Positions 7,045 to 63,632 of a stretch of DNA of 64,000 bases are shown piece after piece; position 1 is the stretch's first letter, and every line of letters begins with the position of its first letter. Both the position numbers and the translations under genes were made by a program. Below the pieces are notes generated by a model. That model did no database searches and was not told where the DNA came from. It was given only the letters and a program-made list of their open reading frames with translations. Source of the stretch: an uncultured Bacteroidales bacterium (GTDB lineage Bacteria > Bacteroidota > Bacteroidia > Bacteroidales > VadinHA17); assembly GCA_963813405.1 (NCBI GenBank), contig CAWEYU010000005.1, positions 28,122 through 92,121 on the forward strand, written 5' to 3'.

Positions 7045-8406
7045 ATGACAGAAACATCTTTCAAGATCTTTGTTGTTGAGGATAGTGAGTGGTACAACAA
7101 ACTTTTGGTCCATACACTTTCTTTAAATCCCGAGTACGAAGTAAAAAGCTTTTTTAATGGTACTGATTTACTTAAAAGTCTGCATGAATCGCCAGATATT
7201 GTCACTCTTGATTACCGCCTGCCTGATATTACCGGACTTGAGCTGTTTAAGAAGATAAGACAGGAAAACAGCGATATCCAGGTAATCCTTATTTCCGAAC
7301 AGCAGGACATAAATACTGTTGTGACCCTTTTAAAACTGGGCGCTGTTGATTATATCACCAAATCCGACGATATTAATGAACGTTTGCTTAACACTGTTAA
7401 GAATATCAGGAACGGCATTGGTCTTAAAAGGGAGATTTCTGTATTGCGGGGTGAAATCCAGAAGAAATATAGTTTCCGCAAAAGCATCCTGGGTGAAAGT
7501 CCGGCTATCAAAGCAGTACATGACCTGATTGATAAAGCCCTGGTTACCAATATTCCTGTCATTATTTCCGGTGAAACAGGAACCGGGAAAGAACTCGTTG
7601 CCAAGGCAATTCATTACAACTCAAAGCGTAAAGACAGATCATTTGTTGCAGTTAATGTTCCGGCAATTCCTTCTGAATTAATAGAAAGCGAATTGTTCGG
7701 TCATGAAAAGGGTGCTTTTACCGGTGCAGCATCCCGTCGGATAGGAAAATTTGAGGAGGCCGACGGCGGTACACTCTTTCTGGATGAGATAGGGGAGATG
7801 GAGATGAATTTGCAGATGAAATTATTACGGGTTTTACAGGAAAAAGAGATAGTGAGAATAGGCAGCAATAAGCCAGTTAAAACAGATTGCAGGATAATTG
7901 CAGCTACAAATAAAAACCTGAAAGGAGCTGTTAAAAACGGGCATTTCAGGGAGGATCTTTATTACAGGCTTTTAGGTTTGCCTGTCGAGTTGCCTCCGTT
8001 AAGAGACAGGGGAAAGGATATATTGATTCTGGCCAGCCATTTTGCAGAAGAATTCTGCAAGGAAAATAATATGGCATTAAAGAAAATATCAGAGCCATCA
8101 CAAAGAAAGCTTATGAATTACTCTTTCCCCGGAAATGTACGTGAACTAAAATCCGTAATTGAGCTTGCTATTACATTATCTCCGGGTGATGAAATAGGAC
8201 CTTCTGACATTGTGATTGATACATCAGATCCTTTATCAAAAGATTCAAATGCCGATCAGACCTTACGTGAATATGAGCTTAAAATTATCAAAACTACCCT
8301 GAAGAGATACAACAATGATATCAAAACTGTTGCTGAAAAGCTGGATATAGGTGCCTCGACTATATACAGGATCCTAAAAGAAGAAAAGGACCCCCCAACC
8401 ACATAA
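7045..8406 (+). CDS. sigma-54-dependent response regulator (REC, AAA+, HTH; NtrC family)
   Basis: Receiver with IFVVEDSEW...IVTLDYRLPDITG. Walker A GETGTGKE. Sigma-54 contact loop GAFTGA. ESELFGHEKGAFTGA. C-terminal Fis-type HTH (AEKLDIGASTIYRILK). Confidence 0.9.
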   Translation: MTETSFKIFVVEDSEWYNKLLVHTLSLNPEYEVKSFFNGTDLLKSLHESPDIVTLDYRLPDITGLELFKKIRQENSDIQVILISEQQDINTVVTLLKLGAVDYITKSDDINERLLNTVKNIRNGIGLKREISVLRGEIQKKYSFRKSILGESPAIKAVHDLIDKALVTNIPVIISGETGTGKELVAKAIHYNSKRKDRSFVAVNVPAIPSELIESELFGHEKGAFTGAASRRIGKFEEADGGTLFLDEIGEMEMNLQMKLLRVLQEKEIVRIGSNKPVKTDCRIIAATNKNLKGAVKNGHFREDLYYRLLGLPVELPPLRDRGKDILILASHFAEEFCKENNMALKKISEPSQRKLMNYSFPGNVRELKSVIELAITLSPGDEIGPSDIVIDTSDPLSKDSNADQTLREYELKIIKTTLKRYNNDIKTVAEKLDIGASTIYRILKEEKDPPTT

Positions 8407-8488
8407 CAGTCAACCTAAGAGAAGCATAGTACAAATAGTTTCCCATACTTAAAGAGGAGGAGAAATTTATGACATTTAATATCAATAG

Positions 8489-8838
8489 TTTCCCCTCCTT
8501 TTCAAGGAGGGGTGGCCGGGAGTATTGATTCTCTGGTATTTACAAGATTTTTCTCCCCGGCCGGGGTGGTTGATTTCTTTCTTATTACCTTTATTTCTAT
8601 GAAAAACAAAAACGGCGAAGTCAGGAGACTTCGCCGAGCAAAATGATTCAATGCATTAATGGATAAACAGATTTGTTTTCCAGGAACCTGAATATTTGAA
8701 GAGTGAGATTAGGAGAGCTTTCAATAACAAAATAGAATAGACCTGAGAATATAATCAACCACCCCGGCCGCAATAAAGTCTTTGCAATAAATTAATCATA
8801 TGCCTGTTGCGGCCACCCCCCTTGAAAAGGAGGGGAAA
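8489..8838 (+). mobile_element. internally deleted DUF559-endonuclease cassette bounded by hairpin-rich inverted repeats (MITE-like derivative)
   Basis: Both ends match the ends of the intact cassette at 51365-51952: an outer palindrome tttcccctccttttcaaggagggg, then ccccggccggggtggttgatt. The ORF is reduced to its start and its last 24 codons. Confidence 0.7.
8599..8740 (+). pseudogene. DUF559 (Vsr-like) endonuclease remnant
   Basis: ATG plus 4 codons (MKNKN) are identical to the intact gene start at 51839. A perfect hairpin ggcgaagtc-agga-gacttcgcc follows (8614-8635). The terminal codons then read NRFVFQEPEYLKSEIRRAFNNKIE-stop, versus NRFVFQEPEYLKSEKRKAFNNKIE in the intact copy. About 235 nt of ORF are missing. 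Confidence 0.75.
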
Positions 8839-8884
8839 CTGGAAGTGCAGATTATCAGATGTTTACAATGTTTATCTCTCTACG

Positions 8885-9007
8885 AAGTAGGTGATTTATT
8901 CTTTTATTTTTAACATTATATTTATGATTAACAAAAACCTCTTCAACCTTTTCAAAACTTTCCTTTCCTTTTGAAGGAGAGCCTGCCCGCATAAGCAGGG
9001 GGAAAGA
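8885..9007. repeat. second, more decayed fragment of the same cassette
   Basis: atgattaacaaaaacctcttcaac (8924-8947) resembles the intact start atgaaaaacaaaaacctcttcaat. It is followed by an IR-like sequence tttcctttccttttgaaggagag...gcagggggaaaga. Confidence 0.45.
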
Positions 9008-51249: not shown

Positions 51250-51277
51250 TCCGGGGTAAGGAAATAAATAAAAGTTA

Positions 51278-51306
51278 AGGGGCTGTTGAGACAGCCCCTT
51301 TTTTAT
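51278..51306 (+). terminator. rho-independent terminator of the cytochrome operon
   Basis: Perfect 10-bp stem aaggggctgt / acagcccctt, 4-nt loop, then a T run. Confidence 0.8.
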
Positions 51307-51364
51307 TGGGTTGAAGGCATAGCCGTCAACTTAAGAGTTGGGAATAAGAGATTGTAGTGAACAA

Positions 51365-51952
51365 TTTCCCCTCCTTTTGAAGGAGGGGTGGTCGGGAGCG
51401 ATTGATTATCTGATATATACAATATTTACTCTCCCGACCGGGGTGGTTGATTATCTTCTCAGGTCTATTCTATTTTGTTATTGAAAGCTTTCCTTTTCTC
51501 ACTCTTCAAATATTCAGGTTCCTGAAATACAAATCTGTTTGCGAATCTTAATACAGTGAATCCTAAAGTCCCCAGATGTTTATCCCTGTTTTTATCTTCT
51601 TCAATTTTATGATATGCACCATGGGGATCACCATCAAGTTCGATAATTAGTTTTTCAGAAGGACAACAGAAGTCGACAATGTTATTTCCAATACAGTATT
51701 GTCTTCTGAATTTTCTTCCATAAAGCTTTTTTGATTTTAACATCTCCCACAAAGCAACTTCAGCTGAAGTAGATCTGTTCCTGAGAGATGCTCTGAAAGA
51801 CTTAAGGACCTTTCTATTGAAGAGGTTTTTGTTTTTCATTGATATAAAGGTAATAAGAAAGAATGAAATCAACCACCCCGGCCGGGGATAAAGTCTTGTA
51901 AATACCAGAGAATCAAGGGTCCCGGCCACCCCTCCTTGAAAAGGAGGGGAAA
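51365..51952 (-). mobile_element. intact DUF559-endonuclease cassette with imperfect terminal inverted repeats of about 88 bp
   Basis: The left end tttcccctccttttgaaggaggggtggtcggg...cccgaccggggtggttgatt and the reverse complement of the right end tttcccctccttttcaaggaggggtggccggg...ccccggccggggtggttgatt align at about 80%. A single ORF lies between them. Confidence 0.7.
51465..51839 (-). CDS. DUF559 / Vsr-like endonuclease-domain protein
   Basis: 124 aa from MKNKNLFNRK. Motif FRRQYCIGNNIVDFCCPSEKLIIELDG...D...R...L...GFTVLRF, typical of DUF559. The 30-aa N-terminal extension in the track is read-through of the inverted repeat. Confidence 0.8.
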   Translation of the reverse strand: MKNKNLFNRKVLKSFRASLRNRSTSAEVALWEMLKSKKLYGRKFRRQYCIGNNIVDFCCPSEKLIIELDGDPHGAYHKIEEDKNRDKHLGTLGFTVLRFANRFVFQEPEYLKSEKRKAFNNKIE

Positions 51953-52068
51953 CTATTTGTATTATGCTTCTCTTAAGTTAACAGCTTTGGGGTTGGAGGG
52001 TCCCGAAAGCTTTCGGGATAGCGGTAGATCATAAAAAAGGAGCATTTGAGACAGCCCCTTTTTTTATA

Positions 52069-63554: not shown

Positions 63555-63632
63555 TGGGGTGGAAGATGGGGCTCGAACCCACGACCTTCGGAACCACAAT
63601 CCGACGTTCTAACCGACTGAACTACATCCACC
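63555..63632 (-). tRNA. tRNA-His (anticodon GTG) with genomically encoded G-1 and CCA
   Basis: Hand-folded cloverleaf on the minus strand. Acceptor GTGGATG/CTTCCAC (one U-U mismatch). D arm GTTC-AGTCGGTTA-GAAC. Anticodon arm TCGGA-TTGTGGT-TCCGA. T arm GTGGG-TTCGAGC-CCCAT. Discriminator C, then CCA. An extra 5-prime G pairs with C73. Confidence 0.85.

Follow-up and report, generated by a model that had tools for sequence, protein, structure and literature searches.

A mobile gene cassette occupies the spacer between two convergent cytochrome genes in a 64,000-nucleotide stretch of DNA from an uncultured Bacteroidales bacterium (VadinHA17; contig CAWEYU010000005.1, positions 28,122 to 92,121), which we call the window. 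The cassette spans window positions 51318-51989 (672 bp), and its only conserved open reading frame (ORF) encodes a nuclease of the DUF559 family, set between two inverted, hairpin-forming arms. We conclude, with a probability of roughly 80%, that it is a non-autonomous mobile insertion cassette (MIC) of an IS4-family, IS231-like lineage of Bacteroidales. MICs consist of inverted repeats of insertion sequence (IS) type around a passenger coding sequence, are 0.7–3 kb long and are mobilised in trans (PMC6199540, PMC3913671). An earlier description of the locus made without database searches, the sequence-only reading, had held that the element belongs to no formally described class. The class is already described: the cassette has two terminal inverted repeats (TIRs) related to those of an IS family, a different coding sequence where the transposase gene would be, and a target duplication of the length made by the parent IS type (10 bp, with 10–12 bp in the IS231 subgroup). 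Its cargo is no passive passenger, as the nuclease is kept by selection and the hairpin arms are kept as structures.

Comparison with other copies fixed the ends of the element. We fetched 35 related loci from Bacteroidales metagenome-assembled genomes (MAGs; fetched loci carry L numbers) and compared the window copy in one alignment with ten full copies, which come from eight genomes. Similarity is lost abruptly just outside CATAGCCGTCAACYTAAG on both sides, placing the mobile unit between TIRs of 18–20 bp, CATAGCCGTCAACYTAAG(AG). The gene-distal (3') TIR, CATAGCCGTCAACTTAAGAG at 51318-51337 on the plus strand, agrees with the family TIR at every position, and the gene-proximal (5') TIR, CAAAGCTGTTAACTTAAG at 51970-51989 on the minus strand, is partly decayed, with 3 mismatches to the family consensus. 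The sequence-only reading had missed this pair (20 nt, 85% complementary) and taken the 88-bp arms for the terminal repeats. The arms are real and the unit is larger than they are, as it had suspected, but the true ends are the TIRs, which similarity between copies reaches at 51318 and 51989. Between the TIRs lie short spacers and the cargo.

A 10-bp target duplication abuts the TIRs. Its left copy (GGGTTGAAGG, 51308-51317) and right copy (GGGTTGGAGG, 51990-51999) match at 9 of 10 positions. Six other copies have 10/10 duplications (L007, L082, L085, L094, L143 and L130), and L020, L021 and L022 also have 9/10. The insertion sites are diverse and intergenic, and have in common only short runs of G or C in a GGG-N4-GGG type of arrangement.

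A second pair of direct repeats stands further out and predates the insertion. The 19-nt sequence TTGAGACAGCCCCTTTTTT occurs exactly twice in the window (51286-51304 and 52046-52064; 0.01 expected) and widens to 28 nt at 89% identity. The first 28-nt copy (51277-51304, plus strand) is the terminator hairpin of the cytochrome c gene, the second (52037-52064, plus strand) is degenerate, and both lie outside the element. They stand 4 and 37 nt beyond the target duplications, and without the element their starts would be 78 nt apart. The two copies had been recognised before, with the first coordinate off by one, and had been read as a target duplication or as the trace of insertion into a terminator hairpin. 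Their position outside the true 10-bp duplication rules this out; they are a pre-existing feature of the spacer and no product of this insertion.

The cassette is multicopy and mobile. Several genomes contain many copies and fragments, eight loci in one MAG and four in another, and many close DUF559 homologues lie on contigs of about 1 kb, as repeats that break assemblies would be expected to. Deleted derivatives of 135–620 bp retain both TIRs, some of them with perfect target duplications. We recognised syntenic loci in relatives by an NrfD-like gene, a 297-aa gene, cytochrome c (91–95% identical), a convergent multihaem cytochrome and a Crp-family regulator. L156–L159 have no cassette and a spacer of 106–120 bp; L161–L164 have a different tandem repeat in its place; L165 and L166 have a different cassette remnant, truncated and placed elsewhere in the spacer region, which is followed downstream by an IS200/IS605 transposase gene. 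The relatives' spacers are too diverged for a base-exact empty site. The L161–L164 array, which follows the cytochrome c gene, is built of units of about 35 nt (TCGTGTACCTTTGCTCGGCGTAGTTTGTAACTACG) and varies in copy number by sample, giving spacers of 423–529 bp. The sequence-only reading had named three observations that would speak against mobility: a repeat confined to the known loci, the same insertion at the same place in all relatives, and the flanking duplication at terminators without a cassette. We found copies elsewhere, relatives without this insertion, and the 28-nt repeat in none of 194 fetched loci, so all three objections fall away.

The ends place the cassette with the IS231 subgroup of the IS4 family. 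This subgroup has the end consensus CAT-------AA--TAA--- and direct repeats of 10–12 bp (PMC2266710). CATAGCCGTCAACTTAAGAG fits the consensus at C1 A2 T3, A11 A12 and T15 A16 A17, and the cassette end is identical to the end of ISBce2, read from a B. thuringiensis plasmid, at 15 of 20 positions. A scan of metagenome contigs for the 18-nt TIR gave at least 120 loci, and among the matches listed the same TIR bounds four kinds of element. The first are autonomous insertion sequences of 1.44–1.86 kb with one ORF of 400–446 aa. The second are cassettes like that of the window, about 670–810 bp when full, with DUF559 full or internally deleted. The third (L085, L111 and L040; 667–798 bp) carry a second DUF559 lineage, 22–36% identical in protein sequence, with different GC-rich hairpins. 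The fourth are miniature elements of 100–340 bp with no ORF. A TIR scan of viral contigs gave no matches.

The long ORFs of the autonomous elements are, as judged from their sequence, IS4-family DDE transposases. They match PF01609 (E 3e-27) and the NCBIfam IS4 model NF033592 (201 and 183 bits, cut-off 115), and they contain the YREK motif (Y-(2)-R-(3)-E-(6)-K) as YKIRWQIELMFKIWK. Their best matches in a plasmid collection are ISBce2 transposases of the B. cereus group, at only about 31–32% identity, and 711 of the 798 matching records are from Bacillus. The cassette shares the end consensus, direct repeats of about 10 bp and G/C-run targets with IS231A and ISBce2; the partner insertion sequences have the DDE and YREK motifs, whereas the window element has no transposase. 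According to its published description, the IS231 subgroup hardly occurs outside the B. cereus group (PMC2266710). One further element with near-consensus TIRs, 2.86 kb long (L141, 83-2942), has ORFs of 193 and 590 aa without similarity to two transposase queries, and is perhaps a further IS, or a cassette carrying other cargo.

We propose that the cassette moves by borrowed transposition. The window copy went into a G-run target of the GGG-N4-GGG type and duplicated 10 bp, as its flanks show; a DDE-type transposase would have carried this out by cut and paste. The enzyme would be supplied in trans by a 1.6-kb insertion sequence, full-length and with identical ends, most likely one from a transposase lineage that itself inserts at targets of this kind. 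One lineage duplicates GTG-N4-CAC; the tnp2-type lineage duplicates GGG/CCC-run sites, like the cassette. The transposase homologue P0345, found on long contigs, is a single locus in several samples with no cassette nearby.

Several points weigh against this account. Mobilisation in trans is a step that we infer: a full-length IS with these ends was not found in a cassette-bearing genome, in the 64 kb that we read of the source genome or the roughly 6 kb read around each MAG locus, and tblastn with the partner transposases found no homologue in the 64-kb window or the 35 genome loci. Beyond the TIR, insertion sequences and cassette share little subterminal sequence. The putative membership of the transposases in the IS231 subgroup is argued from about 31–32% identity to ISBce2 and the end consensus only. 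The flanks of L004, L104 and L014 do not match as direct repeats, which is explicable by recombination between copies. With 3 mismatches in its right TIR, the window copy may no longer be mobile. Finally, a simple passenger role does not account for DUF559 having been retained over the long term in a non-autonomous element.

The closest known counterpart is MIC231 of the B. cereus group. As relayed in PMC6199540 and PMC2266710 (from Chen et al. 1999 and De Palmenaer et al. 2004), MIC231 likewise has IS231-type TIRs around a passenger coding sequence without a transposase, a target duplication of about 10 bp, and full-length insertion sequences with matching ends under a model of mobilisation in trans, which would apply here too; at 672 bp, the window element is at the low end of the 0.7–3 kb range. 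The host is of the Bacteroidota here and of the Bacillota there, and the passenger here, kept through two deeply diverged lineages, is a DUF559 nuclease that comes with structured inverted arms of its own. DUF559 was not found on Bacillus plasmids. Miniature inverted-repeat transposable elements are also non-autonomous, bounded by TIRs and target duplications and mobilised in trans, and the present family includes ORF-less derivatives of 100–450 bp; the window copy differs from them in its intact, selected ORF.

The DUF559 gene is under purifying selection. It is intact at 51465-51839 on the minus strand, as first described, and encodes a Vsr-like PD-(D/E)XK nuclease of 124 aa that matches PF04480 at E 3.3e-29 (101.4 bits, Pfam gathering cut-off 20.6) and PDB 3HRL, an 'endonuclease-like protein' of N. 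gonorrhoeae, at E 2.6e-18. It gave no match to the Pfam Vsr model. An AlphaFold model from a shallow alignment reached a predicted local distance difference test score (pLDDT) of 46.6, and we relied on the PDB sequence matches instead. The ORF list gives a 154-aa form with a GTG start inside the repeat. Since homologues start with MKNKN and are mostly 121–129 aa long, the 30-aa extension is spurious, an open frame running through the repeat, as the sequence-only reading had said. Residues D56, D69 and H73 never vary, and E67 hardly does, across 35 sequences, including one homologue only 30% identical. Among 21 distinct intact copies the median pairwise ratio of nonsynonymous to synonymous divergence (dN/dS) is 0.20 (maximum 0.57), and the synonymous divergence (dS) of intact copies from the window copy is 0.5–2.2. 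PADLOC returned only a weak DpdF match (E 3.8e-5) and therefore no support for a known defence system.

The arms are conserved as structures. The arm downstream of the gene (51365-51452, plus strand; fold -34.3 kcal/mol) has a first hairpin, H1, at 51368-51388 (CCCCTCCTT-TTG-AAGGAGGGG) and a second, H2, with stems at 51389-51398 and 51431-51440, followed by GGGGTGGTTGAT. The upstream arm (51865-51952, plus strand) is its inverted copy, with H2' stems at 51880-51887 and 51920-51927 and H1' at 51929-51949. Segment 51360-51397 pairs with 51920-51957 (38 nt, 89% complementary) and 51433-51459 with 51860-51886 (27 nt, 85%). The 350 nt upstream of the gene align with the reverse complement of the 350 nt downstream at a Smith-Waterman score of 107, against a mean of 19.5 and a maximum of 29 for 300 random window segments. 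The inverted repeats and the two hairpins per arm had thus been correctly predicted; both hairpins of each arm fold, at about -34 kcal/mol. The window contains four occurrences of the outer palindrome CCCCTCC..GGAGGGG (0.04 expected), and its H1/H2 hairpins are found in cassette copies only.

A collection of 80 distinct arms separated the behaviour of the two hairpins. The H1 stem (CCCCTCCTT-loop-AAGGAGGGG) is almost invariant and its loop variable. In H2, six stem pairs are kept in 92–99% of arms, and four positions have double compensatory changes (CG 61 / TA 11; GC 71 / AT 6; GC 59 / CG 19; GC 35 / AT 21). The arms were not found in the autonomous insertion sequences bearing the same TIRs, and therefore belong to the cargo.

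DUF559 genes in other phyla are flanked by similar hairpins, an outcome that bears out a check proposed in the sequence-only reading. Our sample comprised 18 DUF559 loci from Proteobacteria, Deinococcota and cyanobacteria, 37–49% identical; it is small and partly non-independent, as three Deinococcus loci share a position. None of the 18 has IS231-type ends. Many are bracketed by inverted repeats of polypyrimidine-loop-polypurine hairpins, with flank scores, against a null maximum of 34, of 208 in S. meliloti (L184, 114-nt repeats), 108 in Pseudanabaena (L177), 107 in D. psychrotolerans (L187), 98 in D. proteolyticus (L188), 71 in D. aetherius (L178), 42 in D. wulumuqiensis (L189), 34 in Picosynechococcus 7003 (L182) and 33 in N. 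gonorrhoeae (L179). We also counted hairpins under a strict rule (a perfect stem of 7 bp or more whose 5' arm consists of pyrimidines only, four or more of them C), which misses the shorter cyanobacterial stems. Such hairpins lie within 300 nt of the gene at 11 of the 18 loci, and their density is 2.04/kb near the gene and 0.054/kb in 167 kb of surrounding sequence, about a 38-fold difference. Both measures were negative at three loci, two of Synechocystis and one of Azospirillum.

These hairpins match a known class of orphan repeats. The BoxC/PIT/'triplex motif' repeats have the TMECO consensus CCCTCNCCC N3-6 GGGNGAGGG N3 GGGNGAGGG, that is, pyrimidine arm, loop, purine arm, N3 and second purine arm (Holder et al. 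2015, PMC4666352). They are widespread and tied to local genetic instability, and no neighbouring mobility gene was found for them (PMC4666352). Of the 23 copies in E. coli K-12, one is placed between fabI and ycjD in the supplementary table of that study; ycjD is the E. coli DUF559 gene, and the TMECO/BoxC motif lies just downstream of it. The full triplex pattern is matched by the L085-type cassette and by the Sphingomonas, S. meliloti and E. coli loci. In the second Bacteroidota cassette lineage the arms are canonical triplex motifs, and the full consensus recurs at Proteobacteria and Deinococcus DUF559 loci. Sphingomonas parapaucimobilis (L186, 14905-15390) has motif, DUF559 and inverted motif between sufB and sufC, which are contiguous in Azospirillum; D. 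psychrotolerans (L187, 674-1170) has DUF559 with inverted motifs between paaD and paaZ. The window-type arm shares the core of polypyrimidine arm, loop and polypurine arm, but has the H2 hairpin in place of the third segment: its H1 is followed by TGG and then by GGYCGGGA, which is no purine run and forms the H2 stem. The published study names no gene associated with its repeats. The link between DUF559 and hairpins of the BoxC/PIT/triplex type seems undescribed; it is in no literature that we searched, and searches for DUF559 with inverted repeats or mobile cassettes returned nothing relevant.

The neighbourhoods of these foreign genes vary. In Shinella, too, the match to sufB-sufC takes in about 500 bp in excess of the query. 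The S. meliloti gene with its 114-nt inverted flanks (L184, 15562-16725) adjoins an IS4-like ISRm16 transposase gene. Cyanobacterial DUF559 genes adjoin genes whose annotation is BREX PglX (L176) or DUF1156 domain-containing (L182, L183 and L191), with toxin-antitoxin genes (L182, L183 and L191) and CRISPR-associated genes (L183) in the neighbourhood.

Because DUF559 genes of other phyla have hairpins of the same kind but lack IS ends, we assign the arms to the biology of the nuclease rather than to the transposition machinery. This argues that gene and arms form an older module, in which the arms are a substrate, regulator or propagation site of the nuclease. A stronger form of this idea, tentative but the best of the alternatives, takes DUF559 and its hairpin repeats as the primary unit, comparable to repetitive extragenic palindromes (REPs) and their REP-associated tyrosine transposases (RAYTs). 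DUF559 would spread, maintain or home into BoxC/PIT/triplex-type repeats. Possibly, too, the unit was merely captured between IS ends in Bacteroidales, which is compatible with movement as a MIC and departs from it in the purpose given to arms and nuclease. It is likewise conceivable, though we would not bet on it, that DUF559 is the missing partner of these repeats, its gene set between inverted copies of its own repeat as a RAYT is between REPs, and that it recognises or cuts their folded form, be it hairpin, cruciform or triplex, and would thereby propagate, maintain or exploit them.

The evidence on the REP/RAYT-like reading is mixed. In its favour are the five cross-phylum flank scores from 71 to 208, the clustering of strict hairpins near the gene, the motif beside ycjD, the canonical triplex arms of the second Bacteroidota lineage, the Sphingomonas unit between sufB and sufC, and the orphan status of the repeats in Holder et al. 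(PMC4666352). The family profile also matches the Vsr-fold homing endonuclease I-Bth0305I (3R3P), weakly, at E 0.013. On the other side stand the size and partial non-independence of the sample and its three negative loci. The H1/H2 hairpins of the window are confined to cassette copies and not dispersed alone, and the window-type arm has no clear third-strand segment. No biochemical activity is known for any DUF559 protein. We considered arm-only elements as virgin sites for DUF559 homing and rejected them: several retain ORF remnants (L042, L088), none was shown to be virgin, and no 'empty' arm pairs were found.

The cassette also differs from two known systems that it resembles in this respect. 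A REP/RAYT unit, or REPtron, likewise sets a small nuclease-type gene between inverted hairpin repeats, and in other phyla the present repeat type also occurs elsewhere in the genome (0.054/kb away from the gene); the hairpins of the window, however, show no such dispersal beyond the cassette copies. Since its protein is a PD-(D/E)XK (Vsr-like) nuclease and not a Y1 HUH transposase, the cassette is not a REPtron. With I-Bth0305I (EDxHD family, PDB 3R3P) and E. coli Vsr the protein has a fold superfamily in common, the VSR/DUF559/DUF2726 clade (PMC3424549), but neither an intron or intein context nor a long homing site is present here. The TIRs, target duplication and diverse short targets of the cassette make it no usual homing endonuclease gene.

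A purely regulatory role for the arms is a little less probable still. They would then be cis-regulatory or insulating hairpins that block read-through into a possibly toxic nuclease gene, or autoregulatory sites, with no part in mobility and no role as substrate. Such a role suits their symmetric placement on both sides of the gene and their stable hairpins, of which H2 covaries; shortly before the ATG, a conserved GGTTGAT followed by a TAnnTTTA-like sequence resembles, by eye, a Bacteroidetes promoter. Yet both hairpins lack a following U-tract, whichever direction is read, and PIT/BoxC elements showed neither promoter nor terminator activity in E. coli (PMC4666352). Rfam has no family for the arms: the cassette and four foreign loci gave only chance-level matches at E<=1, and the only match at the gathering threshold in the window is a tRNA gene (63558-63631, minus strand). 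The H1 stem, moreover, is near-invariant across lineages with an ORF dS of 0.5–2, which suggests sequence-specific recognition rather than structure alone.

The proposal that the cassette mobilises itself, with the nuclease cutting targets and the 88-bp arms as its ends, is very improbable and already largely refuted for the Bacteroidales copies. The sequence-only reading, which had suggested a homing or selfish DUF559 cassette, was right that it is mobile, multicopy and equipped with an intact gene. The conserved gene, the inverted arms on both of its sides and the distant relation to a known homing endonuclease fold are all in keeping with homing. To our knowledge, a PD-(D/E)XK nuclease cannot perform strand transfer. 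Similarity between copies runs past the arms to IS-type TIRs, 10-bp target duplications abut these TIRs, and the insertion sites are diverse short G-run motifs and not one long homing site. Identical TIRs and target duplications also bound transposase-encoding insertion sequences and ORF-less miniature elements, and mobility is best explained by a DDE transposase acting in trans. That the locus is an ordinary, static chromosomal gene between bidirectional terminators, as its place between two convergent genes might suggest, is refuted by the multiple copies with target duplications within genomes, by syntenic loci in relatives without this insertion and by the many homologues on contigs of about 1 kb, typical of repeats.

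A second, decayed copy of the cassette lies at 8402-8840 on the plus strand. It had been noticed before at 8.4 kb, correctly, together with its similarity to the intact copy past the 88-bp arms. It consists of a left TIR (8402-8419) followed by a 50-nt partial duplication, an arm (8489-8574), an ATG with four codons (8599-8613), a foreign hairpin replacing most of the ORF (8614-8635), a C-terminal remnant (8666-8740) and H1' (8815-8835); no right TIR is recognisable. The foreign hairpin, GGCGAAGTC-N4-GACTTCGCC, is 22 nt long and occurs once in the window and once in L165 (1438-1459), where it lies 3' of the cytochrome c orthologue of a close relative. Perhaps it is a further small repeat or a hairpin that is itself mobile. 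The stop codon of a 453-aa ORF at 7045-8406 is the TAA within CATAAC of the left TIR of this copy (window 8388-8419), and the insertion thus replaced the original 3' end of the gene, which by eye would encode a sigma-54-type activator. The flank TGGTTGGGGGGTCC of the decayed copy (minus strand) resembles the flank GGGTTGGAGGGTCC of the intact one.

Remnants and clusters of the cassette show further rearrangement. A third cassette-related fragment in the window (8945-9000, minus strand) is H1-like, split by a small hairpin (TTTCCCCC-TGCTTATGCGGGCAG-GCTCTCCTTCAAAAGG), and similar to the left part of L101 (226-955), in which a foreign segment of about 600 bp lies between two H1 halves. In the remnant of the closest relatives, L165 (1368-1961) and L166 (882-1883), where cytochrome c is 95% identical, a TIR and half of H1 are followed by unrelated sequence. 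Further sequence was apparently inserted there at the H1 hairpin, and the IS200/IS605-type gene encodes a Y1 transposase. At L009 (2000-5900), a stretch of 3.7 kb contains three full copies of the cassette, set apart by tandem repeats of the GGTTGAAAG type and CCCCCC-ATGT-GGGGGG-TTGGGGG hairpins, a local amplification of a larger unit. In the window, a perfect 18-nt palindrome, TCCCGAAAGCTTTCGGGA, lies at 52001-52018, directly after the right target duplication. The copies at L007, L009 and L013 are likewise inserted beside hairpins followed by G-runs. The IS family may target triplex-motif-like repeats.

With this cassette the MIC class, hitherto known chiefly from the Bacillus cereus group, extends to environmental Bacteroidales, where it is abundant: our searches gave over 1,200 close homologues of DUF559 and over 1,400 partner transposases, many on contigs of repeat length. 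It explains a recurrent mis-annotation, in which N-terminal extensions are read through the repeat. A nuclease and its structured arms have been kept under selection in a non-autonomous element across two deeply diverged lineages, and Proteobacteria, Deinococcota and cyanobacteria also have this gene between hairpins, there with no IS ends. The association of DUF559 with these repeats is the part worth following up. If it is functional, it would offer a concrete hypothesis for the role of DUF559 and the origin of the repeats, giving a testable function to a very large protein family and to a repeat class that has been an orphan for 30 years.

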